From an uncultured Bifidobacterium sp. (GTDB lineage Bacteria > Actinomycetota > Acidimicrobiia > Acidimicrobiales > Ilumatobacteraceae), in assembly GCA_964540395.1 (NCBI GenBank), contig CAZIME010000003.1, positions 11,800-75,799 on the forward strand: a stretch of DNA of 64,000 bases, written 5' to 3'. A model generated the notes under the pieces. The model did not search any database. It worked only from the letters and a program-made list of their open reading frames with translations, and was not told the DNA's origin. The position numbers and the translations under genes are program-made. This document shows positions 1 to 18,812 of the stretch, piece after piece. Within the stretch, counting starts at the first letter, position 1. Each line of letters opens with the position of its first letter.

Positions 1-265
1 TCCGGTTGCGCATGATGGCAACGACGATCCCGAGTCCAACGACGACCTCGGCCGCGGCGACGACGAGCACGAAGAGCACGATGCTCTGTCCGTCGATGTC
101 GAGCAGGCGCTTCGACAGCGCAACGAACGACAGGTTCACCGCGTTGAGCATCAATTCGATGCACATGAACATGACGAGCGGGTTGCGTCGCACGAGGACC
201 CCGACGGTGCCGATCGTGAACAGGAGCGCGGCGAGAACGAGATACCAGGTGGTCGTCGGTGTCAT
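1..265 (-). CDS. nuoK: NADH-quinone oxidoreductase subunit K (C-terminal end cut by window edge)
   Basis: Own translation of the minus strand gives [53 protein letters not shown]..., which is ND4L/NuoK-like. The ATG at 263-265 overlaps the nuoJ stop (ATGA). It is absent from the ORF track because it has no stop inside the window. Confidence 0.9.
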
Positions 266-807
266 GACTGCTCCCCCGCTCCCGCACGACGACGTCGGGC
301 GAGCAGAACGGTTCCGACTACCGCCACGACGAGCAACACGGACGTGAGCTCGAATGCGACGACGTAATCTCCGAACACCGAACGGGCCAACTGCGCGATG
401 TTTGCGTCACCGTTCTCCGCATCGAGTTGGGTGGCAAGACCGCCTCCGCGCACGGCGAGAACGTCGTTGCCGCGGATCACCGCCGTGAGCAGGAGTGCGA
501 GTAGTCCCGCACCGACGACTGCGGCGAGCGAGCGTTGCGCGACGAGCGGTTCGGTCTTCAGATCCTCCGCCCGATCGACACCGAGGAGCATGATGACGAA
601 GAGAAAAAGCACGACGATTGCTCCGGCATACACGATCACCTGGACGGCGGCGAGGAAGTGCGCCTCCTGCGCGACGAAGAGGACCGCGACACCGAAAAGG
701 GTGAGAACGAGCGAGAGTGCGGCGTGAACGGGATTGCGCCGCACGATGACGCCGACGGCCCCGACGAGGCACATCGCCGCTGCGCAGAGGAAAACGAACA
801 GTTCCAT
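262..807 (-). CDS. nuoJ: NADH-quinone oxidoreductase subunit J
   Basis: 181 aa [37 protein letters not shown]..., with an ND6-like TM pattern. It sits between nuoI and nuoK. Confidence 0.92.
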
Positions 808-811
808 GCGG

Positions 812-1468
812 CTACTTCATGCCTCGCCCGTCAGCGGTGGCCTGATCGGGCTCCGCGGCGCGCACCCCGTAACCCAGCTCGCCGGCCCATGACACCACTC
901 CTTCGAACGATGCATCGCCCGCCGGGGCGGTCGCGCGCATCCACGCCGACGTGTTCGCATCTTCGCCCGGGCGCCAGTCCTCCCACGGCAGGTGCTTCGG
1001 TTTGCCGTCGTCACCGACGAGGAGTTCTTCCTTCGTGTAGATCGCATCTCGGCGGTTCGTGAACGAGAACTCGAACAACTTCGTCTCGGTGATCGCCTCG
1101 GTCGGGCATGCCTCGACGCAGAGATCACAGTGGATGCAGCGCAGATAGTTGATCTCGTAGATCCAGCCGAAGCGCTCACCGGGGGACGTCGGCGAATCTG
1201 GATCATTGTCGCGGCCGCGGACGTGGATGCACTTCGCCGGACACACGGCGGCGCACAGTTCGCACCCGATGCACTTCTCCATGCCGTCCTCGTAACGGTT
1301 GAGGACATGACGACCGTGCAAGCGCTCCGGCTTGTCGATCTTCTCATCCATCACCTCGGCCTTCTTCTTGTTGCGTCGGAAGACGCGGCCGCCCGAGTAC
1401 TGGGTGGTGACGCGGTTCTTGCGACCGTGCTGCCGGAACGTGACGAGGAATCCGCCGAGGTAACCCAT
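812..1468 (-). CDS. nuoI: NADH-quinone oxidoreductase subunit I
   Basis: Track ORF 812..2320 trimmed to the ATG at 1466-1468 ([11 protein letters not shown]...), which touches the nuoH stop. It has two 4Fe-4S motifs, [12 protein letters not shown] and [12 protein letters not shown]. Confidence 0.93.
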
Positions 1469-2685
1469 CAGAACTGTGCTCCTTCCCGTGCTCGGGTGCG
1501 TGCACTGGTGGCGAAGGCGAGGCTGAGCATCGCGTAACACGCCGCGAGAACGACGACGGCAATGACCGTCGTTGTGACGACACTCCATCCCTCGCTGCGC
1601 GCGAGGCGTTGTGCGGCGAGCAGGAGGAACCAGCCGAGCGATGCCGGGATGAGAACCTTCCACCCGAAGTCCATGAGCTGGTCGTATCGCAGCCGCGGCA
1701 GCGACGCCCGGAACCACACGTAGGCGTAGAGGAAGACGAGCACCTTGAGTACGAGCCAGATCGTCCCCTCGAGTGCGTTCGGGATGAACGGAATGTCGAG
1801 GATGTAGCCGTTGATCGCGATCGGCTGCGGGCCTCCGAAGAACAGCGTGACGATGAGCGCCGACATCGTCACCGTGTTCATGAACTCGGCGAGGAAGAAC
1901 AACGAGAAGCGCAGCGCCGAGTACTCGGTGTTGAAGCCGCCGACGAGTTCCTGCTCGGCCTCGACGAGATCGAACGGAGGTCGGTTGAGCTCGGCCGTAG
2001 CTGCAATGAGGAAGATGACGAACGGAACGACCCCGGTGGTGACGACGTGCCACGTACCGAGTGTCGACTGTGCGGCCACGATGCCGCTCGTCGACAGTGT
2101 TCCCGCGGTGAGCAGCACGGAGGCGAGCGAGAGGCCGAGCGCCGCCTCGTACGACACCATCTGGGCCGATGCCCGCACCGAGCCGAGCAACGGGTACTTC
2201 GAGCCGCTCGACCACCCTGCGAGCATGATTCCATACACCGCGATCGACGAGATCGCGAGGGCGAACAGCACACCCACGTGCGGGTCCGCGAGTTGCACCC
2301 TCGTCTCGACTCCGAACCACGTGACGATGCCGTCATTGCCGTTGCGCCAGTCACCACCGAGCGGGATGATCGCGAACGCGAGGAACGCCGGGACGAACGA
2401 GAGGAACGGAGCGAGGGCGAATACGAACCGGTCAGCACGGCTCGGAATGATGTCTTCCTTGAAAAACAACTTGATTCCGTCGGCAAGTGTCTGCAGCAAG
2501 CCGAACGGACCGGCCTTGTTCGGACCGATGCGGTTCTGCATACCGGCGACGACCTTGCGCTCGAACCAGACCATGAGCATCGTTGCGACAAGACCCGCGA
2601 CGAACACGGCGAGCACCTTGATACCGACGATTGCGAGATTCTGCCAGCCGAAGTCGCCCTGCAGTGCGGGATCGAGCGCGATCAT
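1468..2685 (-). CDS. nuoH: NADH-quinone oxidoreductase subunit H
   Basis: Track ORF 1468..2775 trimmed to the ATG at 2683-2685 (MIALDPALQ...), with an ATGA overlap on the nuoG stop. It is a multi-TM ND1-like protein ([17 protein letters not shown]). Confidence 0.93.
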
Positions 2686-5060
2686 CGAACGACCTCGATG
2701 GTGACATCCGTGACGTCGGCAGCATGGTCGATGAGTTCGCGCACGTCGGGGCCGTTCTGGTGCAGCGGCACCCATACGGTCCCGCGCGGCACGCTGACAT
2801 CCGCGTGTGCCGGGAGCGACACCGACGTCCGCTGACTGACGAGTCGAACGTGCCCGCCGGCCGAGACACCCGCGTGCACCATGTCGGCCGGGTTGAGGAA
2901 CGCACGGGACTCACCGACGAGCGGTGCGAGCGACGCGCTGCGCGCGGTACCGACGGCTCCGTCGTACAACTCACGCGACACGACGAGTCTGTGGTGGAAG
3001 CCGAGGCGCTGCGCCGGTGTCCGCGACGAGCGCGACATCGTGACGGGTTGCGGGTGCACGACGACGACACCCTCCCGGCGCACGGCGCGCGCATCGGCGG
3101 TGGGAGCGAAAGCGGGAACGCCGGCGACGAGGGCCGCATGCGCATCGGCGTAGGTCGTGACGCCGAGATCGACACCGAGCTGGGCCGCGAGCTCGACGGC
3201 AATCATCCAGTCGGGGCGGGACATGCCCGTCGCCGTCACCTTCTGGGCGACATCGCTGACGCGACCCTCGAGGTTCGTCGTCGTACCGACCTTCTCACCG
3301 AAAGCCGCGGCGGCGAGTACGACATCGGCGCGGGCCACCGACTCGGTGTGGTGCGTATCGACGGCGATGACGCTGCCGACCCGGGCGAAGGCACGACGCG
3401 CGAGGTCGGCATCCGGTACGTCGCTGAGCGGATCGGCTCCGAGCAACACGAGGCACTCGATGCGTCCCGCGGCGGCGGCCTCGAGCATGCCCACGGTGTC
3501 GAGGCCGTTACCCCGCGGCGCCAGTCCGGCGAGAACTGCGCCGCGTACGTTGGCGCGGCGCAACACGGGAAGGACACGCGCATCGGGAGCGGCGGCAAAC
3601 ACTTCGGCGAGACCGTGCAGGACGAACTCGGCCGACTCGGCGAGATTCGTGCGTCCGACGACCACGGTGACGGCACCACGACGCAACTGCTCCGCAACGG
3701 CGGGGGTGGCCACGAGATCGCGCACCACTCGCGATTGATCACCGGATTCGCACGTGACCGACTGCCATGCGTAGGGAGTGAGACCCGACGCACGTGTCGT
3801 CACTTCGATGATGCGGGCGCGACGCTTCTGCGCGGCGTCCCGCAGGCGCAGATAGAGAACCGGCGCTTCTTCCTTGAGGTCGGGTGCGAGGAGGATGACG
3901 GTCGGCGAAGATGCCGCGTCGGCGATCGTGGCCTGCGGGAGCGCAAACACCTCGTTGGGCAATCCGTCGCCCAGGTGTGCATCACGATTGGTGATGCCGA
4001 CCGCTTCGGCGAGTCGGGACCACATGTACGCGTCCTCGTTGGTACCGCGTGCGCCGCCGATGATGCCGATCGCGTTCGCGCCTTTGGACTGATCCGACAG
4101 GGTCGTTCGCAGGATCCGACCGGCGCGCTCGAGTGCCGTCGCCCAGTTCGTTGCGACGAGTGCGTCGCCTTCCCGCACGAGCGGCGCCGTGATCCGATCG
4201 TCAGATCGCAGAGCTTCGAAGTTGAAGCGTCCCTTGTCGCACAGCCATCCCCAGTTCACCGATTCGACGTCGACACCTTGGTAACGCACGATCTCGTCGC
4301 GGCTGCTCTGGACGACGACGCGACAACCAACGGAGCACGTCGTGCACGTGCTCTCCACCTGCTCGAGGTCCCACGGGCGGGCCTTGAAACGGTACGGGGT
4401 TGCGGTGAGCGCGCCGACCGGGCAGATCTGCACCGTGTTGCCGGAGAAGTACGAACTGAACGGCTCGTCCGGGAAGGTCATCACCTGCGTGTTGTTACCG
4501 CGACTGGTGAACGAAATGAGTGGATCACCGGCGACCTCGTCGGCGAATCGCGTGCACCGGTCGCAGAGGATGCAACGCTCACGGTCGAGGTACACGAGTT
4601 CGCTGATCGGGATCGGCTTCTCGTAGTGGCGCTTTTCCTCGACGAATCGACTCTCGCCGGGTCCGTGCGAGAAGGCCTGGTCCTGCAGCGGACACTCGCC
4701 TCCCTTGTCACACACCGGGCAGTCGAGCGGATGGTTGGCGAGCAGCAACTCGAGCACGCCTTCCTGCGCCCGCTTCACGGTGTCACTGTTCGTCGTCACC
4801 GCCTGGCCCTCGGCCACCGGTGTCATGCACGACACCACCATCATCTTTCCGCGCGGACCGTCGACCTCGACGAGACACTGTCGGCACATTCCGACGGGCG
4901 TCATGCGCGGGTGGTAACAGAAGTGGGGAACGTACGAGCCGGCGTCCTGACACGCATCGATGACAAGTTGACCGGGCTGCGCTTCGTGCGCCCGACCGTC
5001 GATCGTCACCGAGACCGTCGTCTTCGGTGCCGCCGTTTCCGCTGCGGATGTGTCAGCCAT
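2682..5060 (-). CDS. nuoG: NADH-quinone oxidoreductase subunit G
   Basis: Start at MADTSAAE (ATG 5058-5060). N-terminal Fe-S Cys clusters are present (CYHPRMTPVGMCRQC, HPLDCPVCDKGGEC, CILCDRCTRF), followed by a molybdopterin-oxidoreductase-like body. Confidence 0.93.
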   Translation of the reverse strand: MADTSAAETAAPKTTVSVTIDGRAHEAQPGQLVIDACQDAGSYVPHFCYHPRMTPVGMCRQCLVEVDGPRGKMMVVSCMTPVAEGQAVTTNSDTVKRAQEGVLELLLANHPLDCPVCDKGGECPLQDQAFSHGPGESRFVEEKRHYEKPIPISELVYLDRERCILCDRCTRFADEVAGDPLISFTSRGNNTQVMTFPDEPFSSYFSGNTVQICPVGALTATPYRFKARPWDLEQVESTCTTCSVGCRVVVQSSRDEIVRYQGVDVESVNWGWLCDKGRFNFEALRSDDRITAPLVREGDALVATNWATALERAGRILRTTLSDQSKGANAIGIIGGARGTNEDAYMWSRLAEAVGITNRDAHLGDGLPNEVFALPQATIADAASSPTVILLAPDLKEEAPVLYLRLRDAAQKRRARIIEVTTRASGLTPYAWQSVTCESGDQSRVVRDLVATPAVAEQLRRGAVTVVVGRTNLAESAEFVLHGLAEVFAAAPDARVLPVLRRANVRGAVLAGLAPRGNGLDTVGMLEAAAAGRIECLVLLGADPLSDVPDADLARRAFARVGSVIAVDTHHTESVARADVVLAAAAFGEKVGTTTNLEGRVSDVAQKVTATGMSRPDWMIAVELAAQLGVDLGVTTYADAHAALVAGVPAFAPTADARAVRREGVVVVHPQPVTMSRSSRTPAQRLGFHHRLVVSRELYDGAVGTARSASLAPLVGESRAFLNPADMVHAGVSAGGHVRLVSQRTSVSLPAHADVSVPRGTVWVPLHQNGPDVRELIDHAADVTDVTIEVVR

Positions 5061-6405
5061 GGCTCGCCACCGCATGTCCGAAGATCGGTTCGACGCCGGC
5101 GATGGCGTGACCGTGCTCGACGTAGTGCTCGAACTCGTGACGGAAGCGCCGCACCGCCGAGGCGATAGGCGACACGGCCGACGGACCGAGCGGGCAGATC
5201 GTCGTCTGCCTGGGCGGCCACGCGATGCCGGGGCTGATGCTCTCGCTGATTTCCATGAGAAGGTCGATGTCCTGCGCGCGACCGTGTCCGTCGAGCATGC
5301 GCTTCAGCACCTTCTCCAACCAGTTCGTTCCCTCGCGGCACGGCGTGCACTTGCCGCAGGATTCGCGCGCAAAGAAGCGCACGATGCGCCAGCATGCGGC
5401 GACCATGTCGGTGGTCTCGTCCATGACGACGATCGCACCCGATCCGAGCATCGATCCGGCCTTGTCGACCGTCGGCTTGTCGAGCGGCATGTCGAGGTGC
5501 TCATCGAAGAACCACATTGCCGATGCGCCGCCGGGAATGAAGGCCTTCACCCGTCGTCCGCCGCGTACGCCACCGCAGTACTCGTCCGCCTCGAACAACA
5601 TGCGGAAGGTCGTCACGCCGTTCGGCACCTCGAACACGCCGGGACGCTTGACGTGTCCGCTCACCGCGAACATGCGCATGCCCGTCGACGTCGGCGCACC
5701 GATCTCCTTGAACGATGCGCCGCCGCGACCGACGATCCACGGAACGTTCGAGAGCGTCTCGACGTTGTTCACGATCGTCGGCTGCATGTACAGACCCTTC
5801 ACCGCCGGGAAGAACGGGGGCTTCAGGCGCGGCATACCACGCTCCCCTTCGAGGCTCTCGATGAGTGCCGTTTCCTCGCCGACGATGTAGGCGCCCGCTC
5901 CCCATGTGAGCGTGATGTCGGCGGAAAAACCCGAGCCGCACACGTTGCGTCCGATCATTCCGTTCGCATACGCATCGTTGATCGCCGCCGCGAGACGCTC
6001 CTGCGCGAGTGCCATTTCGCCACGTACGTAGAGGAACGCGTGCGGTGCGTTGAGTGCGTAACAGGCGAGCATGATGCCCTCGATGAGCTGGTGCGGGTCG
6101 CGCTCCATGAGCAGGCGGTCCTTGTACGTGCCGGGTTCGCTCTCGTCACCGTTGATGACGAGGTAGCGCGGGTGCACACCGGCCGGGAGGAACCCCCACT
6201 TCGTTCCGGCGGGAAAACCTGCTCCGCCGCGGCCCTGGATCTCGGCTGCCTTCACTTCATCGTGTACCTGCTGCGGCGTCATCGCCGTGACGGCCTTACG
6301 CAGCGCTTCGTATCCGCCGGTGCGCACGTAACCGTCGTACGTGTGACCATCGGCCTGATCGAATCGGGTGGTGATGAGTCGGGGTCCGGTCGGTACTGCG
6401 CTCAT
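5053..6405 (-). CDS. nuoF: NADH-quinone oxidoreductase subunit F
   Basis: Track ORF trimmed to the ATG at 6403-6405 (MSAVPTGPRL...), with an ATGA overlap on the nuoE stop. It has the GRGGAGFPAGTKWGF motif and ESCGKCTPCREG. Confidence 0.95.
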   Translation of the reverse strand: MSAVPTGPRLITTRFDQADGHTYDGYVRTGGYEALRKAVTAMTPQQVHDEVKAAEIQGRGGAGFPAGTKWGFLPAGVHPRYLVINGDESEPGTYKDRLLMERDPHQLIEGIMLACYALNAPHAFLYVRGEMALAQERLAAAINDAYANGMIGRNVCGSGFSADITLTWGAGAYIVGEETALIESLEGERGMPRLKPPFFPAVKGLYMQPTIVNNVETLSNVPWIVGRGGASFKEIGAPTSTGMRMFAVSGHVKRPGVFEVPNGVTTFRMLFEADEYCGGVRGGRRVKAFIPGGASAMWFFDEHLDMPLDKPTVDKAGSMLGSGAIVVMDETTDMVAACWRIVRFFARESCGKCTPCREGTNWLEKVLKRMLDGHGRAQDIDLLMEISESISPGIAWPPRQTTICPLGPSAVSPIASAVRRFRHEFEHYVEHGHAIAGVEPIFGHAVASHG

Positions 6406-6986
6406 CGTTCGTCGGCCTTTCGCTGTGCCTCGACTCCCGCATTGCTCCACTTGTCCGTGGTGCGTTGACGCACCGTGGCGAGGGTGCCGTGTGCCGGCAC
6501 GTCGCTGCGGCGTCCGGACGCGAGATCGTCGATGAGTGCGTCGAAGGATTTGGGCGTCACCTTGTACTCGTAGCGGTAGTTCACCTGCAGTGCCGGTGCC
6601 TCCGTGCACGCGGCGATGCACTCGACGTCCTCGAGTGTGAACTTCTCGTCGTCGGTCGTGCTGCCGGCCTTGATCCCCAGTTTCTCCTCGGCATGGTGAA
6701 GGAGATCCCACGCGCCGAGCAGCTGGCACGAGATGTTCGTGCACACGTTGATGCAGTAGCGACCGACGGGTTGGAACTTGAACATCTCGTAGAAACTCGC
6801 CGTTCCGTACACATCCGCCGCCGTGGTGCCGACGAGTTCGGCGATGTGCACCATCGCGTCCTGGGTGACGTAGCCGTCCTGTTCCTGGGCGAGATGGAGC
6901 AGCGGAATGGTTGCGGACTTGCGGCGCGGAAAACGCGCGATGATCTCGTGTGCGATCTCGACGTTGGCCGGCGACAGACGACTCAT
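6402..6986 (-). CDS. nuoE: NADH-quinone oxidoreductase subunit E
   Basis: Trimmed to the ATG at 6984-6986 (MSRLSPANVEIAHEII...), with an ATGA overlap on the nuoD stop. The 2Fe-2S Cys pattern is NVCTNISC ... ECIAACTEAP. Confidence 0.93.
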   Translation of the reverse strand: MSRLSPANVEIAHEIIARFPRRKSATIPLLHLAQEQDGYVTQDAMVHIAELVGTTAADVYGTASFYEMFKFQPVGRYCINVCTNISCQLLGAWDLLHHAEEKLGIKAGSTTDDEKFTLEDVECIAACTEAPALQVNYRYEYKVTPKSFDALIDDLASGRRSDVPAHGTLATVRQRTTDKWSNAGVEAQRKADER

Positions 6987-8326
6987 CGGTCGACCTCGCC
7001 GAGCACGGGATCGATGGACGAGATGACTGCGACGGCGTCGGCGACCAGACCGCCGCGCATCATGTGCGGCAGGCACTGGACATTGACGAAGCTCGGCGCG
7101 CGCACGTGCATGCGGTACGGGGTCGACGATCCGTCGCTGGCGATGTAGCAACCGATCTCGCCGCGCGGGGACTCGATCGCCACGTACACCTCGCCCTCGG
7201 GAACCTTGAATCCCTCGGTGAAGATCTTGAAGTGGTGGATGAGAGCTTCCATCGACTCGTCGATGCGACCGCGCGGGGGCGGCGTCACCTTCTTGTTCTG
7301 GATGCGGTAGTTGCCTGCGGGCATCCGGTCGAGGATCTGGCGCACGATGCGCATGGATTCGCGGATCTCCTGCAGTCGAATGGCGTACCGGTCGTACGCA
7401 TCGCCGTGCACTCCGACAACGACGTCGAACTCGACGTCGTTGTAACGGAGGTACGGCACGTCCTTGCGCAGGTCCCACGCGATACCCGTCGAGCGCAGGA
7501 TCGGCCCCGTGGCGGCGAGGGCGACGGCCTCGTCCTGGGTGATCACACCGACGCCCTGGAGACGTTCGCGCCAGATCGGCTGACCCGTCATCAAGACTTC
7601 GTATTCCTCGAGTCGGGGCGGAATCTCGTCGAGCAGATGGAGCACGTCGTCGCGCCATCCCGCCGGCAGGTCGGCGGCGAGACCACCGGGACGGATGAAG
7701 TTGTGGTTCATCCGCAGTCCGGTCACCTTCTGGAAGAAGCGCAGCACCTGCTCGCGTTCGCGCCAGCCGTACAACATCATCGACACGGCACCGAGGTCCA
7801 TGCCGTTCGTCGCCATGAACAGGAGGTGACTGCTCATGCGGTTGAGCTCCGACAGCAGCATGCGCATCCACACGGCACGCTCGGGGATGTCACCGTCGAT
7901 GCCGAGCAGTTTCTCGGTCGCCATCGAGAACACGAGTTCGTTGTTCAGCGGCGAGAGATAGTCCATGCGCGTTACGTTCGTTCCGCCCTGCATGAACGTC
8001 AGCGACTCGCCCGTCTTTTCCATGCCGGTGTGCAGGTAACCGATGATCGGCTTGCAGCGCAGCACCGTCTCGCCCTGGAGTTCGAGCATGAGTCGCAACA
8101 CGCCGTGGGTACTCGGATGCTGAGGACCCATGTTGATGATCATCGTCTGGTCCTCATCGGGATCCGTCCCCACCGAGGTGAGTGCAGCTGCATCGGCTTC
8201 ACTCATCCGCAGAACCGCACCGGACTCGCGCATGAGTTCCTTGTGGCCGACGATCGATCGTGGCTGGAGTTCCTGAGCACCCTCGGAGGTACCCGCGGAA
8301 ACGATGCGCGGTTCGACGGTCGTCAC
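6983..8326 (-). CDS. nuoD: NADH-quinone oxidoreductase subunit D
   Basis: GTG at 8324-8326 (VTTVEPRIV...) overlaps the nuoC stop. It carries the MGPQHPSTHGVLRL signature. Confidence 0.93.
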   Translation of the reverse strand: MTTVEPRIVSAGTSEGAQELQPRSIVGHKELMRESGAVLRMSEADAAALTSVGTDPDEDQTMIINMGPQHPSTHGVLRLMLELQGETVLRCKPIIGYLHTGMEKTGESLTFMQGGTNVTRMDYLSPLNNELVFSMATEKLLGIDGDIPERAVWMRMLLSELNRMSSHLLFMATNGMDLGAVSMMLYGWREREQVLRFFQKVTGLRMNHNFIRPGGLAADLPAGWRDDVLHLLDEIPPRLEEYEVLMTGQPIWRERLQGVGVITQDEAVALAATGPILRSTGIAWDLRKDVPYLRYNDVEFDVVVGVHGDAYDRYAIRLQEIRESMRIVRQILDRMPAGNYRIQNKKVTPPPRGRIDESMEALIHHFKIFTEGFKVPEGEVYVAIESPRGEIGCYIASDGSSTPYRMHVRAPSFVNVQCLPHMMRGGLVADAVAVISSIDPVLGEVDR

Positions 8327-8820
8327 GACGCCGCTCCCTTGAACTGCACGGGAATCCGGCCTTGCGCGTAATCCTTGCGCAACGGATGCCCCTCCCAATC
8401 CTCGGGCATGAGGATTCGCGTGAGGTCGGGGTGTCCGTCGAAACGGATGCCGAACATGTCGTACACCTCGCGCTCCATCGCCTCGGTTGCGGGATAAAGA
8501 TCGAACAACGACGCAACCGTCTCGCCGTCGGCAACCTGGGTGCGTACCCGGACGCGGCGTTTGTGCTGCAGCGAAAGCAGGTTGACGACGACCTCGAATC
8601 GCTCGGCCGTCACACCGACGGGTAGCGACCGCTGCGGGTGAACGAGGTAATCGACCGCGGTGAGGTCGACGCACATCTGGTAGCCGTCCTCGTACAGCCC
8701 GCGACAAAGGTTGAGGTGCTCGGTACGTGCGGCGTGCACGACGTGCTGACCGAAGCGCGTTTCGCTCGGGCAACCGTGCACGAGCACAGGGCTCGCCTGC
8801 GTCGTCGCGTCGTCGGACAC
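8323..8820 (-). CDS. nuoC: NADH-quinone oxidoreductase subunit C
   Basis: GTG at 8818-8820 lies just after the nuoB stop. It has the 30-kDa subunit motif EREVYDMFGIRFDGHPDLTRILMPEDWEGHPLRKDY. The start is uncertain. Confidence 0.88.
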   Translation of the reverse strand: MSDDATTQASPVLVHGCPSETRFGQHVVHAARTEHLNLCRGLYEDGYQMCVDLTAVDYLVHPQRSLPVGVTAERFEVVVNLLSLQHKRRVRVRTQVADGETVASLFDLYPATEAMEREVYDMFGIRFDGHPDLTRILMPEDWEGHPLRKDYAQGRIPVQFKGAAS

Positions 8821-8821
8821 G

Positions 8822-9406
8822 TCAGCGGCCCTGCAATGCGACGGGCACGGTGAGACCAGCGGGCACCTCTTGAATGTGGACGTCGGCGCCCGCGCCGGTC
8901 GCTGCACGGCGACGCATGATCTCGCCGTCCTCGATGAGCTGGTGCAGGGTTTCGATCGCATGGATGAGGGTCTCCGGTGTCGGTGGACAACCCGGTGCGT
9001 ACACGTCGACGGGGACGATCTGATCGACGCCCTGCACGATGGCGTAGTTGTTGAACATTCCGCCGCTGCTCGCGCAGACGCCCATAGAGATGACCCACTT
9101 CGGTTCCATCATCTGGTCGTACACCTGTCGCAGTACCGGGGCCATCTTCTGGCTGACGCGGCCGGCAACGATCATGATGTCGGCCTGGCGCGGTGACGCA
9201 CGGAACACTTCCATGCCGAAGCGGGCGATGTCGTAGTGCGGTGCCCCGGTGCCCATCATCTCGATGGCGCAACACGCAAGCCCGAACGTCGCACCCCAGC
9301 TTGAACGCGAACGCGACCACTTCACGAGATCCTCGATGCGACCGGTGAGGAAGTTGTGGCGCATCCCTCCGAGACCCTCGTCGGCAATGTCGCGCAGGAC
9401 GCTCAC
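8822..9406 (-). CDS. nuoB: NADH-quinone oxidoreductase subunit B
   Basis: GTG at 9404-9406 overlaps the nuoA stop; an alternative ATG ends at 9364. Motifs are [20 protein letters not shown] and APGCPP. Confidence 0.92.
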
Positions 9407-9873
9407 CGTGAACCCACCAGTTCGGAGTTGCGCTCGCGACCTTCGAGACCCACGATTCGTACGTTGCAACCGGGCTCGGCAACGACTCCGACGTCGACGA
9501 GAGGGGCATCCTTCTTTATCGGACCCCAATCGAGTGCACCACGCGCCACGACGTACACGAACGCAACGAAGAACACCGCGCTGAACGCGACGATCTCCCA
9601 GAAGACGAATGCACCGAGTTCACGTTGCGAAACGGCGTACGGGTAGGCAAAGACGATCTCGATGTCGAACATGATGAACAACATCGCAACGACGTAGAAC
9701 GACACCGGGAAGCGCTCGGGGGCCTCGCGACTCGGCACGATGCCGCATTCGTACGGCGCGAGCTTTGCGCTGTTCGGCCGACGCGGCGCGAGGAGCTTCG
9801 ATGCGACGATGCTGATTGCGCCGAATCCGATGGCAAGCACCATCAGCACGATGATCGGAAGATACTGACCCAC
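9403..9873 (-). CDS. nuoA: NADH-quinone oxidoreductase subunit A (with C-terminal extension)
   Basis: 156 aa, ND3-like (PYECG, FDIEIVF). About 35 extra hydrophilic residues follow the last TM. Confidence 0.9.
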
Positions 9874-9891
9874 GTGCCGCTGTGCCCCGGA

Positions 9892-10725
9892 TCAGACCTT
9901 GTCGAGTTCTCGGTCGAGTTCTCGCGCAGCAGCCAGGTTCTGGCGCAGGATGAGATCGCGACGGTGCAACATCCAGCACAGGATGAGGAAGATCAGCGTC
10001 GAGCCGAGCGTGATGAAAATCGCCGGCTGACGTTTGTTGCCGAGGTCGCGAATCATGTGCACGTAACGGCGGTCCTGCGTCTCGTCGATCTTCGGTCGCG
10101 AGGGGGCACGACCCGGTTCGACGCGCTGCGGAAGCACCGGGGCGACTTCGACGAGCGCGTAACGCGGCTCGTGGAAGAAGGCGAAGAAGTCGAGTGTCTC
10201 GTTGACCTTCGGCCAACGCTCGCCGCCGCGTTCGTAGACAGCGACAGAGACGAACTCACCGGCGTCGAATTCACCCGCCTCGTTGATGAGGATGACGTCC
10301 GACGAGGCGACTGCCTGACCACGCTGAGGGTCCGACTCTTCGAGGCGCACCCATCCGTCCGCTTCGAGCGCAGTGGCGACGTTCGCCGCGGTTTCCACCG
10401 GGGTGGCACCGGGCTGCACCGAACCTGCGACGATCTCGGCGTTCTGCAGGAGTCGTGCATCGCGCACGATCGTTGCCGGTTCGGCGGGCTGCCAGGTGGG
10501 TGAGGCACCGGTGAGACCGATTCCGTATATCCACCACACGGCTCCCATGATCGCCATCCAGCCGAAGAATCCGCCGAGGATGACGAGAATGCCGAGTCGG
10601 GCGCCGAGGTTCGAGCCGACGATGAGGTACGTGCCGCCGATGAGCGCCACCGCCATCGTGATGACGACGATGATTCCGCGGAGGGTCGGCTCCCAGTTGA
10701 TTGCGAGGAGTGTTGCCAACGTCAT
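9892..10725 (-). CDS. Integral membrane protein, family not recognised
   Basis: 277 aa with three N-terminal TM helices, a hydrophilic middle and one C-terminal TM. Its ATG directly abuts the TAA of the upstream cytochrome c gene, and it ends 18 bp before nuoA. Confidence 0.7.
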   Translation of the reverse strand: MTLATLLAINWEPTLRGIIVVITMAVALIGGTYLIVGSNLGARLGILVILGGFFGWMAIMGAVWWIYGIGLTGASPTWQPAEPATIVRDARLLQNAEIVAGSVQPGATPVETAANVATALEADGWVRLEESDPQRGQAVASSDVILINEAGEFDAGEFVSVAVYERGGERWPKVNETLDFFAFFHEPRYALVEVAPVLPQRVEPGRAPSRPKIDETQDRRYVHMIRDLGNKRQPAIFITLGSTLIFLILCWMLHRRDLILRQNLAAARELDRELDKV

Positions 10726-11799
10726 TTAGAGACCTCGCACGTAGTCAACGATTGCCGCGATCTGATCCTCGGTGAGCATGCCGCCGAATCCGGGCATGCG
10801 TCCGCCACCCTGACCTTGTTCGCCGTAACGCTTGCCGTACTCACTGCCGGCGGTGATGAACGCGATCATGTCGGCTCTGTTCGGGAACTGACGGATCGTC
10901 GAACCGCCCGTGAGGTTCGGTCCGAATGCACCGCCACCGGTGATCTGCGGTTCACCGTATGACCAGCCCTTGGTGTGGCAGCGGGCGCACGAGTACTGGC
11001 CGCCGCCGAGATCGAGGTTGAACAATGCTTCACCGAGGGATCCGTACGTGCCGGCCGCGACGAGGCGTTCGGCTTCTTCCTGGATCTGATCCTTCGTCGA
11101 CGCGGGCAGCGTTCCCCCGGCACACGTGCGCGGATCGGCGTCCGCCACGTCGCAGTTCTCGCGCGGCACCTGGATCGACTTCATGTATTCGATGATCGTC
11201 TGGATCTGTTGCTCGTTCAGCGGGCCACCACCGACGAGACCCCACGCCGACATCGGCGAGAACGGACGTCCGTAGTTGAGGATGAAGCGAACTTCTTCCT
11301 CGTCGAATCGCGAAAACACCGTGTTCAGGGCCGGGGCCTTCCAGTTCACCGACTTCACTTCCCCGGTCGTCGGGTCGGTGACGGCGTACGAGGCGACGCC
11401 ACCGGCACCGCTCATGCCGCCGTGACATCCCGCGCAATTGAAACCACCGTCGGCGGTCGAGGCAAAGAGTCCCGAACCCCAACGCTCGAACTTGTGCTGG
11501 AAGTCCTTCTCTGCACCGACCTGTCGACCCGGTTCGAGGATCCAGTACAGCGGCAGCGCGATCGTGAGTACGGCGAGGAAACCGAGACCGAGCAACTGGG
11601 TGCGCTCGAGCTTCTTTCCCTCGAGGATTTCGTCGTCGTAGTACGGCTTGCGGTTCGCCGCGAGCTCGATCTCCGAACCGATTTCCTTGCGGCTCGAACG
11701 GATGTTGAAGATGCCGTAGAGCGCCCAGCCGCCGAGAGCGACGAAGAGGACGATCCACGCGAGCGTGGTCGTGACGGCGGCGAGCAATGGTGCGTTCAT
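10726..11799 (-). CDS. Membrane-anchored dihaem cytochrome c
   Basis: Track ORF trimmed to the ATG at 11797-11799 (MNAPLLAAVTTTLAWIVLFVALGG..., a TM anchor). It has two haem c motifs, CAGCH and CARCH. Confidence 0.88.
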   Translation of the reverse strand: MNAPLLAAVTTTLAWIVLFVALGGWALYGIFNIRSSRKEIGSEIELAANRKPYYDDEILEGKKLERTQLLGLGFLAVLTIALPLYWILEPGRQVGAEKDFQHKFERWGSGLFASTADGGFNCAGCHGGMSGAGGVASYAVTDPTTGEVKSVNWKAPALNTVFSRFDEEEVRFILNYGRPFSPMSAWGLVGGGPLNEQQIQTIIEYMKSIQVPRENCDVADADPRTCAGGTLPASTKDQIQEEAERLVAAGTYGSLGEALFNLDLGGGQYSCARCHTKGWSYGEPQITGGGAFGPNLTGGSTIRQFPNRADMIAFITAGSEYGKRYGEQGQGGGRMPGFGGMLTEDQIAAIVDYVRGL

Positions 11800-11809
11800 G
11801 CCCGTGACC

Positions 11810-12649
11810 TCAGTGCGCGCCCGCGGCACCGACGCAATGCGGTCCCTCGGCTTCCTGTCCGGTGGTGTTCGTGCCGATCGGCGGGCCACCGAAAACGGTT
11901 CCCGTATCGATGATCACCTGGCCGTTGACGACGGAGATGCCGAAGTGGTCCATACCTCGCGGCGCCGGGCCGGCCTTCTTCTCACCGACGCGGTTGTACT
12001 GCGAGCCGTGGCACGGGCATTCGAACCACTGCGATGTCTCGCACACCGGCACGCGGCAACCGAGGTGCGGGCACTTCTGGTACGACGCGACGACTCCCGC
12101 CTGCATTCCGGCGAACACGGGAGCCTGACTGCCGTACGCAGCTTCGGCCTTTGCGAGCGATTCCTTCGGGTATTCCGACACCCACGAGCGCGCTTCGGGA
12201 AGGTACAAGAAACCCTTGTTCGAACGGATCGCGGCGATGACGTCGTCGATCTTGCCCGCATTGATCTTCGATCCGAATCCACCCGACGCACCTCGCCAGA
12301 GGAACGCGACGACCGCGGCACCGAAACCGCCGAGACCTGCGCTCATCAGGGTCACCGTCGCACGGTTGAAGAACTGACGACGCGACACGCCGATGACTTC
12401 GGGATCCGGCGGCGACCACGGGGCAACCTCAGCAGCCTTGGGAACCGCCACCGCCGTCGAGGTTGCGCGAGCGTTCACCGCAGCTGCTTCCGCCGCGCGT
12501 GACGCCTTGCGCGACACGCGATCACGCAACTTCGTCTCACGCGAAAGCACGCCCACTCGGTCGCGACGACGGGTCGCGGTGACGGCGATGACGACGCCGA
12601 GCACGAAGAGCACGGCGACTGCGATGGAAATGATGGTGATGCTGCTCAT
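11810..12649 (-). CDS. Rieske 2Fe-2S protein of a cytochrome bc/b6-type complex
   Basis: 279 aa with an N-terminal TM. Rieske boxes are CPHLGC and CPCHGS. Confidence 0.9.
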   Translation of the reverse strand: MSSITIISIAVAVLFVLGVVIAVTATRRRDRVGVLSRETKLRDRVSRKASRAAEAAAVNARATSTAVAVPKAAEVAPWSPPDPEVIGVSRRQFFNRATVTLMSAGLGGFGAAVVAFLWRGASGGFGSKINAGKIDDVIAAIRSNKGFLYLPEARSWVSEYPKESLAKAEAAYGSQAPVFAGMQAGVVASYQKCPHLGCRVPVCETSQWFECPCHGSQYNRVGEKKAGPAPRGMDHFGISVVNGQVIIDTGTVFGGPPIGTNTTGQEAEGPHCVGAAGAH

Positions 12650-12661
12650 GGTGACCGCCGA

Positions 12662-13396
12662 TCAGAGCTCGAAGAAGATTCCGTCACGCCACGGGAACGT
12701 GAAGTTGAAGCCGGGACCGCGGAAGAACGAGCCAATGATGACGAGGATCGCCCAGAACATCATGTGAACCGTCATCAGACTCGTGATGAACTTGCGGTCT
12801 TCGGGTTTGTTCGACGGGTTGCGATCGAGGTACGGCGCGAACATCAACGCGATGAGTCCCATTCCCGGGATGGTGACGCCCGCGATCATCGGATGGAACA
12901 TCGTGAGCAGTTCCTGCAGCCCGAGGAAGTACCACGGGGCCTTCGACGGGTTCGGGGTCGCATTGAAGTTCGCTGCCTGCAGCAACGGCGCGTTGACGAA
13001 CCACGAGAACATGAACGTGAATGCGAGGCACGCGAGCGCGGCGACGAACTCGACGGACAGCAGGTGCGGCCACGTGTGCACCTTGTCGACCGGCACGGCC
13101 TTCACGTCCTGGATCGATCCCGACTTAACAACGGTGAGCAGGCGCTGGGTGTGACCTCCGGGGCCGGCACCCATCGGTACGCCACCGCCGACGGGGGCAG
13201 CAACGACCGGAGCCTTCGGTGCGTCGGCAACGGCGACGCCGCCGGCACGGGCAGCCTTCGAACGATCGAGGAGTTCCTGCGGGATGCGCGACGCGCCGGC
13301 ACTCTGCGCCGACGACGCGTCGTCACCGCCGGTCGATGCGGCCTTTTCGCGGGCCGCTTGGGCGCGCTTGAGAAGGTGTTCGGGGATCTCCGTCAT
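12662..13396 (-). CDS. Cytochrome b C-terminal half (subunit IV / PetD-like) with a long N-terminal extension
   Basis: 244 aa with three TM helices. The Qo-region motif is KAPWYFLGLQELL (PEWY-equivalent). About 100 hydrophilic residues precede the first TM. Confidence 0.85.
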   Translation of the reverse strand: MTEIPEHLLKRAQAAREKAASTGGDDASSAQSAGASRIPQELLDRSKAARAGGVAVADAPKAPVVAAPVGGGVPMGAGPGGHTQRLLTVVKSGSIQDVKAVPVDKVHTWPHLLSVEFVAALACLAFTFMFSWFVNAPLLQAANFNATPNPSKAPWYFLGLQELLTMFHPMIAGVTIPGMGLIALMFAPYLDRNPSNKPEDRKFITSLMTVHMMFWAILVIIGSFFRGPGFNFTFPWRDGIFFEL

Positions 13397-13420
13397 GGTC
13401 GTTGGGCTCCTTTCACCGGC

Positions 13421-14206
13421 TCACAGCGGTCCGGAAATTCCGCCGTCCTTGCGGACGCGCCAGAAGTGAATGGCGAGGAAGATCACCGTGACGAACGGGA
13501 ACAAGATGACGTGGAGTACGTACCAACGCAACAGCGTTTCCGGTCCGATCTCGGTTCCGCCGAGGAGCACGAACCGCACCTGCGATCCGATCACCGGTGA
13601 GTAGCCCATCATGTTCGTTCCCACTGCGACTGCCCACAGTGCGAGCTGGTCCCACGGCAACAGGTAGCCGGTGAACGACAGCAGCAAGGTGAGCGTGAGG
13701 AGGATGACGCCGACGACCCAGTTGAACTCGCGGGGTGCCTTGTATGCGCCGTGGTAGAAGACGCGCGCCATGTGGAGGAACACCGAGAGGACCATGAGGT
13801 GCGCGCCCCAGCGGTGCATGTTGCGCACCATGAGGCCGAAGGTCACCGACGTGTGCAACGACTGGATGTCGTCCCACGCGTTGGCGGCGGTCGGACGGTA
13901 GAAGAACATCAGGAAAATGCCCGTAATCGTGAGCAAAATGAACAGGAAGAAGGAAAGCCCGCCGAGACACAGCGTGTAGCTCACCTTCACCGCGTGTCGC
14001 TTCACCTTCACCGGGTGGAGGTGGTACAGCACCGAGTTCATGACGACGTACGAACGGTTGCGCGGTGAATCGGTGTATCCCTTGCGGAAGATCGAACCGG
14101 GGCGGAAGATGGAGTTCCACACCTGGCTGCCCTGCAGGGACTCGTTCACCTTGGCAATGCGCTCCTTCAGCGAAGGGCGGGGCTTTTCTTCAACGACGCT
14201 GGCCAT
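13421..14206 (-). CDS. Cytochrome b6-like protein (N-terminal four-helix half of cytochrome b)
   Basis: 261 aa. The haem ligand pairs are H130-x13-H144 and H231-x14-H246. It also has YTLCLGG (Cys80). Confidence 0.9.
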   Translation of the reverse strand: MASVVEEKPRPSLKERIAKVNESLQGSQVWNSIFRPGSIFRKGYTDSPRNRSYVVMNSVLYHLHPVKVKRHAVKVSYTLCLGGLSFFLFILLTITGIFLMFFYRPTAANAWDDIQSLHTSVTFGLMVRNMHRWGAHLMVLSVFLHMARVFYHGAYKAPREFNWVVGVILLTLTLLLSFTGYLLPWDQLALWAVAVGTNMMGYSPVIGSQVRFVLLGGTEIGPETLLRWYVLHVILFPFVTVIFLAIHFWRVRKDGGISGPL

Positions 14207-14217
14207 GAATCGCTCCT

Positions 14218-14631
14218 TTAGAACCGCATCCCGTAGGCGTAACCGTGATTGTTCGTGCGCGCGTGGGGGTCACCGTTTGCCGGTGCCACACCGACCTTGC
14301 CCAACACGATGACGCCGGTCGGGCAACGGTCGACGCACAGTGCGCATCGCGTGCAGATGTCGTCGTCGATGACGAACACGACGTGGTCGGAGGGATCGGC
14401 GCCGGGCATCTCGGTGCCGGTCGATTCGACGACGGCTCCCGGGTTCACCATGTGGATGCACTTCCACGGGCAGATGTCGACGCAGCCCTCGCACATGATG
14501 CATTCGCTCTGATCGATGTGGATGAACTGCTTCGGCTTCACTGCCTTGCTGAGGTAGTCGGCATCGACCTCGACGAGGTGGTACTCGTCGGTGAACGGCA
14601 TCATCGGCGGATTGGCATCAGTGCGAGTCAC
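14218..14631 (-). CDS. 2[4Fe-4S] ferredoxin-like protein
   Basis: 137 aa with no TM or signal peptide. Motifs are CIMCEGCVDICP and CTRCALCVDRCP. Confidence 0.85.
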   Translation of the reverse strand: MTRTDANPPMMPFTDEYHLVEVDADYLSKAVKPKQFIHIDQSECIMCEGCVDICPWKCIHMVNPGAVVESTGTEMPGADPSDHVVFVIDDDICTRCALCVDRCPTGVIVLGKVGVAPANGDPHARTNNHGYAYGMRF

Positions 14632-14637
14632 GGTCGA

Positions 14638-15114
14638 TCACCCCTTCCTCACGAGCGGACGGCCATACGTGCTGGTCGGCAGGGCCTTCGGCTTCTGTTC
14701 GCCGCGCTTCTGCCACCAAGCAAACAGGTAAATCATCAGGCCGATGTAGAAGGCGTGGATGACGATGACGATGATGTCGCGAATCGCCTCGTAAGAAATG
14801 GTGAAGGCGAAGGGGCCCCCGAGTTCCTGGGGCTTCAGGAGATCGAAGGGTCCGAAGATGATCTTGTCCTTGCGCCAGCCGAGATCCTTGTCGGCATGGT
14901 CGATCCATTGGTGGGGCACGACTCCGAAGGCAAGGAACAACACGAAGAAGGCGTACGCGGAACCGAACATCGCCTCACCCCACGTCGCCTTGCGGTCGGA
15001 GCGACGGCGCTTGCCGACGGGAATGATGACGAGAGCGAGGGCGGTGGTGATGATGAACGAGAAGAGGAACGCCTGGTTCATCCCCGGCCATCTCAGAACG
15101 TCGACTGCCAACAT
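14638..15114 (-). CDS. Small integral membrane protein, family not recognised
   Basis: 158 aa with 3-4 hydrophobic helices. It is the first gene of the string; an alternative ATG ends at 15081 (MNQAFLF...). Confidence 0.65.
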   Translation of the reverse strand: MLAVDVLRWPGMNQAFLFSFIITTALALVIIPVGKRRRSDRKATWGEAMFGSAYAFFVLFLAFGVVPHQWIDHADKDLGWRKDKIIFGPFDLLKPQELGGPFAFTISYEAIRDIIVIVIHAFYIGLMIYLFAWWQKRGEQKPKALPTSTYGRPLVRKG

Positions 15115-15298
15115 GCGTGTCGAAGCCTAGTAGGGGTGCCGATCGCAGGCATATCGTGGAGATAAGTGCGCTCGTGCATGAACTTCGGTCGTCGACTCCC
15201 ATCGGGTTAGTCTCTTCGGTTGTGTTTGCAGCTCATCGTGCCGCGCTCGTGCTCTCCACGGTTGCAGTGAGGCTGCCCGTCGAAAAGGCATCGCTGTC

Positions 15299-16123
15299 AT
15301 GACCGAAGTACCCGATTATCTCCTCAAGCGCTCGCGCGACCGGCGCGCGGTTCTGCAGGGTGGAACTCCGTCCGCCGACGCACCCGCCGCATCGAGCGCA
15401 GCCGTTGAAAAGGCGACGAGTTCGTCCGCTGCACCCGCCGTCGCAGCAGAGCCGACTCCTCCGCCGCCCCCGAAACCCGATCCTGCATACGTCGTTGCGG
15501 CAAAGACCCGCAAGAAGATTCCGTTCTGGGCAATGGCCACGCTGAGTTTGTTGCCGTTGTGGGCATTTCTCTATCTCCTCGCATTGTCGCCGCAGGAAGA
15601 AACCGTCGAAGGTCCGATGGCCATCGGTGCCGAGGTCTACGGATCGTGCGCAAGCTGCCACGGTGCCGCCGGACAGGGCGGTGCGGGTCGCATTCTCCAC
15701 GAAGGCGAAGTACTCCTCACCTTCCCGCACATCGAAGACATGCTGAACTTCGTCTACACGGGCAGCCAGCCGTACGTATCGGCCGGACTCAACGTGTACG
15801 GCAACCCCGAGCGCGAAGGTGGCGTGCACGCGCCGTTGTCGTACAACGGCAACGCGATGCCGTCACAGGGTGCCAAGTGGGGCGGCGGTCTCACCGAGTA
15901 CGAAATTCTCGGCGTCGTGTGCCACGTGCGCTACGCCATTTCGGGTGCCGATCCGGCGAGCGAGGAATGGCTCGAGGAATACGAGCGGTGGTGCTCACCG
16001 GAATCGGAGATCTTCGCCGGACTGCAGGACGGAACGACGACGTTCGACACGGTCGCCGACACGTTCAACATGCTCGAGAATCCGCCGCGCATCGTCGGCA
16101 CCGAAGCGCGCGCGTCGAAGTAA
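15299..16123 (+). CDS. Membrane-anchored monohaem cytochrome c
   Basis: 274 aa with an Ala/Pro-rich linker, one TM (IPFWAMATLSLLPLWAFLYLLAL) and a single CASCH motif. Confidence 0.85.
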   Translation: MTEVPDYLLKRSRDRRAVLQGGTPSADAPAASSAAVEKATSSSAAPAVAAEPTPPPPPKPDPAYVVAAKTRKKIPFWAMATLSLLPLWAFLYLLALSPQEETVEGPMAIGAEVYGSCASCHGAAGQGGAGRILHEGEVLLTFPHIEDMLNFVYTGSQPYVSAGLNVYGNPEREGGVHAPLSYNGNAMPSQGAKWGGGLTEYEILGVVCHVRYAISGADPASEEWLEEYERWCSPESEIFAGLQDGTTTFDTVADTFNMLENPPRIVGTEARASK

Positions 16124-18113: not shown

Positions 18114-18812
18114 TTAGACGCCGACCGCGTCGGTTCGGGGCGACGAGCCCGCCGACCGCATCTGCTCGTGGTAACCGAGGATCTGCAGTTCGACGCCGAG
18201 GTCGACATTGCGCACCGACACGCCGTTCGGAACCGTCAGTACGACGGGTGCGAAGTTGAGCAACGATCCGATACCGGCGGCGATGAGATCATCGGCGACG
18301 CTCTGTGCCGCCGTCGACGGGACGGCGACGACTCCGATTCGTACGCCCATCGATTGCACCACTTCCTTCATGTCATCCATGTGTCGCACGGTTGCTCCAC
18401 CGATCTTCGTGCCCACCTTCTTCGGGTCGACGTCGAACAGACACGCAACGGGAAATCCGCGCGACGCGAAGCCACCGTTCGTCGCCAGGGCCGAGCCCAG
18501 GTTCCCCGCGCCGGCGACGACGACTTTCCACTCGGTGAGCAGGCCGAGCTCGCGCTTGATTTGGTAGACGAGGTAGGTCACCTCGTACCCCACCCCGCGC
18601 GTTCCGTACGTGCCGAGGTACGACAGGTCCTTGCGGACCTTCGCCGCATTGACACCGGCGAGTGCCGCGAGCTGATCACTGGAGATTTGGTGCGTCTCGG
18701 TCATCTGCAAGTCGCTGAGAATCTGCAGATAGACGGGTAGCCGATTGACGGCGGCATCGGGAATGCGCCGTGACCGGCGTGGGCTGGTGGGAACGTCGGG
18801 AGGGGTCGACAT
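18114..18812 (-). CDS. rex: Redox-sensing transcriptional repressor Rex
   Basis: Start set at MSTPPDV (ATG ends 18812; an alternative ends 18842). Motifs are RLPVYLQIL, SYLGTYGTRGVGYEV and the Rossmann VVVAGAGNLGSALA. Confidence 0.9.
   Translation of the reverse strand: MSTPPDVPTSPRRSRRIPDAAVNRLPVYLQILSDLQMTETHQISSDQLAALAGVNAAKVRKDLSYLGTYGTRGVGYEVTYLVYQIKRELGLLTEWKVVVAGAGNLGSALATNGGFASRGFPVACLFDVDPKKVGTKIGGATVRHMDDMKEVVQSMGVRIGVVAVPSTAAQSVADDLIAAGIGSLLNFAPVVLTVPNGVSVRNVDLGVELQILGYHEQMRSAGSSPRTDAVGV

Follow-up and report, generated by a model that had tools for sequence, protein, structure and literature searches.

A b6-type complex III gene block joined to nuoA-N across an order of Acidimicrobiia: a probable 21-gene operon fusion

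We analyzed a 64,000-nucleotide stretch of DNA (the window; positions 11800 to 75799 of contig C3) from an uncultured member of the Acidimicrobiia family Ilumatobacteraceae, deposited as an uncultured Bifidobacterium sp. On its minus strand, a block of genes for a complex III-like quinol:cytochrome c oxidoreductase with a split, b6-type cytochrome b (the bc block) runs directly into the nuo genes for complex I. Our favored reading, which we consider probable, is a lineage-specific operon fusion that would have originated in an inversion and has since been expressed as one transcription unit from the region at 15115 to 15298. Within it, the proposal that the string is a single co-transcribed 21-gene operon is well supported by sequence comparison. 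We infer that transcription crosses the junction of the two blocks, that a TAGGCT box upstream of the first gene acts as the promoter, and that an inversion was the actual event.

The string comprises 21 same-strand genes over 20,114 bp, and all 20 of its junctions measure between -8 and +24 bp. Eighteen of these genes lie between 15114 and the left edge of the window, the number counted in the first-pass annotation, which had been made from the window sequence alone. Beyond that edge, nuoL, nuoM, and nuoN continue the string (locus L002, contig C3:1-12500; labels beginning with L are our own handles for loci and their genomes), which ends at a convergent gene overlapping the nuoN stop. The super-operon of more than 15 kb suggested in the first-pass annotation is thus larger than was proposed, at 20.1 kb and 21 genes, while its co-transcription gains support from the comparisons below. 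Going downstream, the genes of the bc block are separated by 6, 11, 24, 12, 10, and 0 bp, and 18 bp then precede nuoA. Within nuo, 4-bp ATGA or GTGA overlaps join A/B, C/D, D/E, E/F, G/H, and J/K; nuoF and nuoG overlap by 8 bp and nuoH and nuoI by 1 bp (TGATG), and nuoB/nuoC and nuoI/nuoJ are separated by 1 and 4 bp, respectively. The open reading frame (ORF) coordinates reproduce every one of the spacings listed earlier, namely the seven gaps down to nuoA, the prevalence of ATGA/GTGA overlaps within nuo, and the 1- and 4-bp spacers. All 21 genes thus have the shared strand and the short or zero spacers expected of a single operon. Pfam searches bear out the gene identities that had been assigned to both blocks, and the features are as follows.

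15115..15298, between strands: divergent control region (184 bp) between the monoheme cytochrome c gene (plus) and mp158 (minus)
15166..15177, minus: conserved box GCACGAGCGCAC, family consensus T[G/T]CACGAnnGCAC, the second conserved block
15124..15131, minus: ACTAGGCT box with -10-like TAGGCT, the most strongly conserved block when aligned with 12 near relatives
14638..15114, minus: mp158, 158-aa membrane protein, first gene of the string, no significant family
14218..14631, minus: fdx, 2x[4Fe-4S] ferredoxin-type subunit (Pfam Fer4 families)
13421..14206, minus: cytb6, cytochrome b6-type, N-terminal four-helix half of cytochrome b (PF00033, E = 2e-45)
12662..13396, minus: suIV, subunit IV-like, C-terminal part of cytochrome b with APWY Qo motif (PF00032)
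11810..12649, minus: Rieske iron-sulfur protein (PF00355)
10726..11799, minus: cytc, membrane-anchored diheme cytochrome c (PF13442 and PF00034 on two stretches; CAGCH and CARCH)
9892..10725, minus: mp277, 277-aa membrane protein, last gene of the bc block, no Pfam/NCBIfam family
9874..9891, minus: 18-bp fusion spacer from the mp277 stop to the nuoA GTG, TCCGGGGCACAGCGGCAC
9403..9873, minus: nuoA (PF00507)
8822..9406, minus: nuoB (PF01058)
8323..8820, minus: nuoC (PF00329)
6983..8326, minus: nuoD (PF00346)
6402..6986, minus: nuoE (PF01257)
5053..6405, minus: nuoF (PF01512, PF10589)
2682..5060, minus: nuoG (PF13510, PF10588, PF22117, PF00384)
1468..2685, minus: nuoH (PF00146)
812..1468, minus: nuoI (Pfam Fer4 families), start overlapping the nuoH stop by 1 nt
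262..807, minus: nuoJ (PF00499)
1..265, minus: nuoK, 3' end outside the window (Pfam; nuoK-nuoN families PF00420, PF00361, PF00662)
L002 9835-11754, 8303-9838, and 6800-8299, co-directional with the string: nuoL, nuoM, and nuoN (Pfam)

All 14 subunits NuoA-N, including the NADH-oxidizing NuoE, NuoF, and NuoG, score above their Pfam cut-offs, and as a 14-gene NDH-1 set the nuo part is unremarkable. The upstream cluster combines a Rieske protein and a c-type cytochrome with a cytochrome b that is split into b6 and subunit IV. Because a tblastn search of the genome (1.64 Mb, 93% complete, densely coded) finds no cytochrome b or Rieske gene outside the string, this b6-type complex is the organism's only complex III.

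The connection between the two blocks is kept throughout the order. Of 301 genomes sampled from the class, 238 gave a match to mp277. Within the same family, the gene order Rieske-cytc-mp277-nuoA-nuoB recurs in 30/30 loci (15 genera; mp277 identity, 47 to 65%). In 14 other families of the order, 20/20 loci carry mp158-fdx-b6-suIV-Rieske-cytc-mp277-nuoA-nuoB-nuoD and onward, back-to-back with a cytochrome c gene that is followed by a geranylgeranyl reductase family gene (ggr). For the order as a whole, nuoA thus stands behind mp277 in 50/50 loci from 15 families, in genomes of up to 5.5 Mb. Across these loci, the mp277 stop and the nuoA start are a median of 4 bp apart (range, -8 to 68 bp; one value is a frame-tracing artifact), and many of the junctions read TGATG or TGAnnnATG. 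The junction is intact down to 28% mp277 identity. An independent scan of named GTDB species representatives, based on a ferredoxin alignment (80 loci), gave the same picture: on all 55 named contigs with more than 600 bp downstream of mp277, nuoA lies within 70 bp (gaps of -1 to 70 bp, median 4). The two sets together make 105 loci, of which some probably represent the same species twice. The first-pass annotation had called for this comparison of gene order and had held that relatives with consistently unlinked blocks would speak against its proposal; the blocks are joined throughout the order loci examined. Genomes of 4.1 to 5.5 Mb (L014, L016, L022, L023, L025, L027, and L028) still have gaps of -1 to 34 bp, and because large genomes keep the layout too, streamlining does not account for it. 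Among the Acidimicrobiia loci examined, a monoheme cytochrome c gene directly beside the bc block was found only in the order with the fused layout.

At the junction itself, the earlier impression that the 18-bp spacer holds no hairpin or promoter-like stretch was borne out, within the limited power that promoter and terminator searches have in high-GC actinobacteria: positions 9874 to 9891 contain no promoter-like or terminator-like consensus site, and the fold of the 121 nt around them is no better than that of shuffled sequence (z = 0.20). The consensus scans were uninformative, returning 0 sigma-70 promoters and 8 terminator-like sites (9.4 expected), all within genes. A search for internal promoters in the 3' part of mp277, another of the checks proposed at first pass, likewise gave no signal. 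Position-anchored information content revealed no position-conserved motif over the 160 nt that precede nuoA, and in the last 300 nt of mp277 there was no excess synonymous-site conservation (third-codon-position identity against the four nearest relatives, 0.45 to 0.61; string mean, 0.544 +/- 0.084). An upstream-gene-embedded ribosome-binding site and single-digit spacers are the usual mark of genes in one operon. A Shine-Dalgarno-like core lies 4 to 20 nt before the nuoA start in 31/49 loci, compared with 17% at control positions, and it falls within the mp277 reading frame in 28 of those 31. Logan contigs with the exact mp277 protein span the junction in four runs and were not counted as transcript evidence.

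Upstream of the 21 genes, the region at 15115 to 15298 was confirmed as the sole non-coding stretch of any size, as had been claimed for it. Its equivalent measures 140 to 520 bp in 68/70 named relatives (the estimates for L164 and L165 are 4 to 9 kb). When aligned with those of 12 near relatives, the region is mostly unalignable except for two conserved blocks, both present in 13/13 genomes. In the ACTAGGCT block, ACTAG is invariant and is followed by GGCT in most genomes, GTCT in two, and GGGT in one; the TAGGCT within it matches the actinobacterial -10 pattern TANNNT. The exact ACTAGGCT sequence occurs a single time in the 64-kb window, and CTAG[GT]CT occurs just twice in 1.09 Mb of the relatives' string sequence. 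By this comparison, the sole detectable conserved promoter-like element is the one at the head of the string. In near relatives, 45 to 61 nt separate the box from the ATG, and a GAAAGG Shine-Dalgarno-like box lies between them; in the window, this leader and GAAAGG box have been lost. Only 9 nt remain here between the end of TAGGCT and the ATG at 15114, so that the transcript probably has next to no leader; a 20-kb operon would thus have shifted to a nearly leaderless mRNA. The GCACGAGCGCAC box sits about 36 nt further upstream than the -10-like box and is a candidate for the binding site of a regulator; a search of the window with it as a loose pattern gave no excess of matches. A 10-bp direct repeat has copies at 15166 to 15177 and 15241 to 15252; only the promoter-proximal copy (15166 to 15177) is in a conserved block, and the distal copy lies within unalignable sequence. 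Control of the string by the redox-sensing repressor Rex, as in Streptomyces, was considered and rejected, since no match to the Rex operator (TTGTGAA-N4-TTCACAA, up to 3 mismatches) is present in 15115 to 15298 or before nuoA. The sole match in the window under the same threshold is at 18832 to 18849, in the start region of rex itself.

The genes on the far side of the control region bear on how the layout may have arisen.

15299..16123, plus: divergent monoheme cytochrome c gene (Pfam)
16223..17476, plus: ggr, geranylgeranyl reductase family gene, MenJ-like (NCBIfam GG-red-SF)
18117..18812 (start approximate), minus: rex, redox-sensing repressor (PF06971, PF02629)

The ggr product scores 230 bits against GG-red-SF (cut-off, 158.8) and 337 bits against MenJ, under that profile's cut-off of 700. 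In other orders of the Acidimicrobiia, 20 loci were compared for layout.

10 loci: nuoD<-nuoB<-nuoA<-ggr, back-to-back with mp158->...->mp277
2 loci: the nuoD<-nuoB<-nuoA<-ggr type, ggr and nuoA being separated by an insertion of about 2 kb
6 loci: ggr back-to-back with the bc block, no nuo within 20 kb
2 loci (L062 and L068): mp277 -> small ORF -> nuoA, co-directional

In the last type, the small ORF (about 9241 to 9596 in L062 and about 9330 to 9590 in L068) encodes a hydrophobic segment; both loci belong to the sister clade described below, and their layout may have arisen by a separate fusion or may represent an intermediate. The deepest clade of the class reads bc -> 1-5.6 kb -> ggr -> 0-5 kb -> nuoA. 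Outside the class, 14 loci from other classes of Actinomycetota hold a ferredoxin-b6-subunit IV-Rieske-cytochrome c block, accompanied in some by an mp277-like gene, and no nuo or ggr gene was found within 7 to 10 kb of these 14. The order ggr->nuoA->nuoB is adjacent in 4/4 other-class genomes, one from each of four classes, with the bc block 14 to 25 kb away on the same contig. Because this adjacency is found in four other classes, comparison of gene order identifies ggr->nuoA as ancestral and the layout of the window as derived. The rex gene is itself a conserved neighbor of this bc block and directly follows it in three other-class loci (L080, L081, and L082).

A tree of concatenated ferredoxin, cytochrome b6, subunit IV, and Rieske sequences was rooted with the other classes; in it, the 21 tightly fused rows fall into a single clade (Shimodaira-Hasegawa approximate likelihood ratio test [SH-aLRT] support, 97). 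Its sister clade (SH-aLRT, 98) has divergent forms, mostly nuo<-ggr back-to-back with bc->, and in the rest of the class both blocks are generally neighbors, in other orientations. Judged from this tree, the fusion has a single origin and is confined to one order-level clade. One inversion of the segment holding ggr and the bc block turns nuo<-ggr, back-to-back with bc->, into nuo<-bc, back-to-back with ggr->. The position of rex and its neighbors, beyond mp277 in the sister clade and beyond ggr in the window, is accompanied by the orientation that such an inversion predicts.

Three families of the order (f3, f4, and f9; L176 to L180) are without the b6-type block, mp277, and the ferredoxin. 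They have a long cytochrome b of 31 to 36% identity, which lies 27 to 35 kb from nuo in the two genomes with both on one contig. In four genomes of f3 and f4, nuoA and ggr are divergent with 95 to 250 bp between them, and rex is close by in three of the four; in f9, the interval between nuoA and ggr is about 1.5 kb. This arrangement of divergent nuoA and ggr with rex beyond is the window layout minus the cytochrome c gene and the bc block, and these families have apparently exchanged their complex III for another.

The bc part belongs to a group that has been recognized from cytochrome b sequences. The suIV product (244 aa) has the Qo motif KAPWYF, which places the bc part in the "APWY clade" of split cytochromes b described by Kao and Hunte in 2014, where Ilumatobacter coccineum is among the members and no member had been characterized at that time (PMC4122944). 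An identity as the Ext cytochrome b pair of the selenite/tellurite reduction operon was considered and dropped: cytb6 passes NCBIfam cytb_ExtP (304.9 bits; cut-off, 290), while subunit IV fails ExtQ (51.2 bits; cut-off, 150), and the complex was not filed as Ext because only one protein of the pair passes its curated cut-off. Ferredoxin identity is 66 to 82% across most of the class, 51 to 58% in its deepest clade, and 35 to 55% in other classes. Within the ferredoxin gene, positions 14490 to 14550 have the highest third-codon-position identity of the string (0.78 to 0.79 against the four nearest relatives; mean, 0.54), which could reflect codon constraint in a Cys-rich motif or an embedded element. 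The suIV protein (12662 to 13396) and the divergent cytochrome c (15299 to 16123) have a common N-terminal peptide, MTE[IV]P[ED][HY]LLKR[AS].

The two membrane proteins that frame the bc block are without a known family. For mp158, no significant Pfam or NCBIfam family was found, and alignment with its homologues in relatives begins at residue 1. For mp277, the same libraries gave no family, although 1492 homologues were found, the closest of them, by their source names, from freshwater Ilumatobacteraceae. Its AlphaFold model (predicted local distance difference test score, 87) has three transmembrane helices and an alpha/beta domain, and comparison with PDB folds gave no match (best E = 0.26). 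Identification of mp277 as a known accessory subunit of complex I or III is accordingly unsupported, by family or by fold. Its gene accompanies the bc block in every arrangement, whether nuo is adjacent or not, and because it stays with that block wherever nuo lies, mp277 is, on genomic context, a bc-associated rather than a nuo-associated protein. A role as a tether in a supercomplex of complexes I and III is possible but unsupported.

We propose the following course of events. The ancestor of one order of Acidimicrobiia would have carried ggr->nuoA-N back-to-back with a seven-gene bc operon for a b6-type, ferredoxin-carrying quinol:cytochrome c complex. A local inversion would then have turned round ggr together with this operon and put nuoA directly behind mp277. 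The string of 21 genes has most likely been one transcription unit from then on, starting in 15115 to 15298, at the TAGGCT box, with translation presumably handed from gene to gene over the overlaps or tiny spacers. The sole complex III and the 14-subunit complex I, that is, the NADH-to-cytochrome c segment, would in this way be switched together. We favor one operon because the adjacency is order-wide with a median gap of 4 bp, because the ribosome-binding site of nuoA lies inside mp277, and because a promoter-like box is conserved only before the first gene, with nothing conserved before nuoA. The first-pass annotation went further and spoke of "stoichiometric co-regulation," which overstates the case: co-transcription couples mRNA supply and does not itself fix subunit stoichiometry.

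Several observations weigh against this proposal. The genomes compared are related and are not independent samples, and the tree comes from a quick search under LG+G4. About 7 kb that separate mp277 from rex in the sister clade are absent from the window, so that more than one rearrangement step is possible. The -10-like box was found upstream of mp158 in the 16 closest relatives and is kept only among these, and the consensus scan gave no sigma-70-like site anywhere, the proposed promoter region included. In the window, nuoA has a GTG start behind an 18-nt spacer with no clear Shine-Dalgarno sequence, so that translational coupling is less obvious here than in relatives. Lineage-specific internal promoters within coding sequence are also possible, given how degenerate actinobacterial promoters are.

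The last of these points leads to an alternative in which the string consists of two abutting transcription units. Here, nuoA-N would be transcribed mainly from a promoter in the 3' part of mp277 or in coding sequence further upstream, the bc transcript would end or be processed near the junction, and the two complexes would be regulated separately. Long operons commonly contain internal promoters and processing sites, and internal promoters are compatible with the sequence data. Moreover, the relatives that lack the bc block express nuo from the 95- to 250-bp divergent region beside ggr, a layout which indicates that nuo can run from its own promoter. We nevertheless regard separate units as unlikely, in view of the 4-bp median gap across 50 loci and the nuoA ribosome-binding site inside mp277, the lack of a conserved motif or synonymous-site constraint upstream of nuoA, the lack of a hairpin or terminator-like site at the junction, and the persistence of that junction at 28% mp277 identity. 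The small size and dense coding of this genome (1.64 Mb) might instead suggest that the adjacency is a matter of chance and that the small gaps reflect streamlining with no selective meaning. That relatives with 4.1- to 5.5-Mb genomes also have gaps of -1 to 34 bp, that the junction is present in all 105 order loci examined (allowing that some may be the same species twice), and that the fusion has a single origin on the tree together make such an explanation extremely improbable.

The fusion could also be kept for assembly and not only for co-regulation, if co-translational assembly of a I-III supercomplex depended on it. The phylum offers a precedent in ctaE-qcrCAB and its III2-IV2 supercomplex, the family-less mp277 and mp158 could be tethers, and linkage of bc and nuo, loose or tight, extends across several classes. 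However, mp277 remains with the bc block when nuo is elsewhere and is hence not nuo-specific, and the sister clades manage without fusion; we hold physical coupling to be very unlikely as the reason the layout persists. In a bolder form, the fused operon would be the genetic footprint of a complex I-complex III respirasome, in which co-transcription and coupled translation bring NuoA and the membrane arm beside the new b6-type complex, mp277 and mp158 act as tethers, and the ferredoxin provides a second, low-potential cytoplasmic entry for electrons. This picture is highly speculative, and we give it little credence.

Two further observations concern the surroundings of the locus. A second nuoA/nuoB/nuoC-like set, 33 to 48% identical to the first, sits about 5 kb past nuoN on contig C3 (L002 292-1759, minus strand, at the contig edge), and nuoL/M/N-like paralogues are present on contigs C39 and C102. 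A second nuoB is also found in four other-class genomes, 15 to 19 kb downstream of the first, so that the tandem arrangement of nuo operons looks ancient within the phylum. This Acidimicrobiia locus is also carried by metagenome-assembled genome records (L097, L100, L115, L118, L126, L139, L149, L166, and L171) with titles that include "Bifidobacterium breve," "uncultured Bifidobacterium sp.," "Ferrithrix thermotolerans DSM 19514," and "Gammaproteobacteria bacterium"; these titles look like mislabeled taxonomy.

In the literature, no description of a bc-nuo operon was found, and the sole relevant item was the mention of the APWY clade (PMC4122944). The clade described there resembles the bc block in its split cytochrome b and its APWY Qo motif, but the paper is silent on a gene neighborhood with nuo. 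The present analysis draws attention to abundant freshwater and soil Acidimicrobiia that carry an uncharacterized, ferredoxin-containing complex III. Operons that span two respiratory complexes are rare, and the well-studied actinobacterial case, ctaE-qcrCAB, goes with a physical supercomplex. An order-wide fusion therefore offers a natural system in which to ask whether the NADH-to-cytochrome c segment is co-regulated as a module and co-assembled. The fusion can be dated on the tree, and the sister clades with divergent layouts and the families that lost the block serve as natural controls.

Among known systems, the nuo part is readily placed. The nuoA-N genes of Escherichia coli, Streptomyces, and other Actinomycetota form a 14-gene NDH-1 operon with a promoter upstream of nuoA, and in Actinomycetota a geranylgeranyl-reductase family gene usually precedes nuoA. 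The string has the same 14 genes in canonical order with overlaps, and ggr->nuoA is retained in the phylum's other classes. It differs in that its nuoA has no upstream non-coding region and instead follows 18 bp behind seven bc genes, and in that ggr in the window is on the other side, in the opposite orientation. The nearest precedent for the fusion is ctaE-qcrCAB of Corynebacterium and Mycobacterium, in which a complex IV subunit is co-transcribed with complex III and the two complexes form a III2-IV2 supercomplex. Both cases place one operon over two respiratory complexes in the same phylum; however, ctaE-qcrCAB joins complexes III and IV in four genes with a long actinobacterial cytochrome b, whereas the string joins complexes III and I in 21 genes with a split, b6-type cytochrome b. 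In Bacteroidota and Rhodothermus, the genes for alternative complex III (act) are clustered with those for cytochrome oxidase. There, as in the string, the genes for a quinol:cytochrome c oxidoreductase are joined to those for another respiratory complex, but the enzyme belongs to an unrelated family, and its partner is complex IV rather than complex I.

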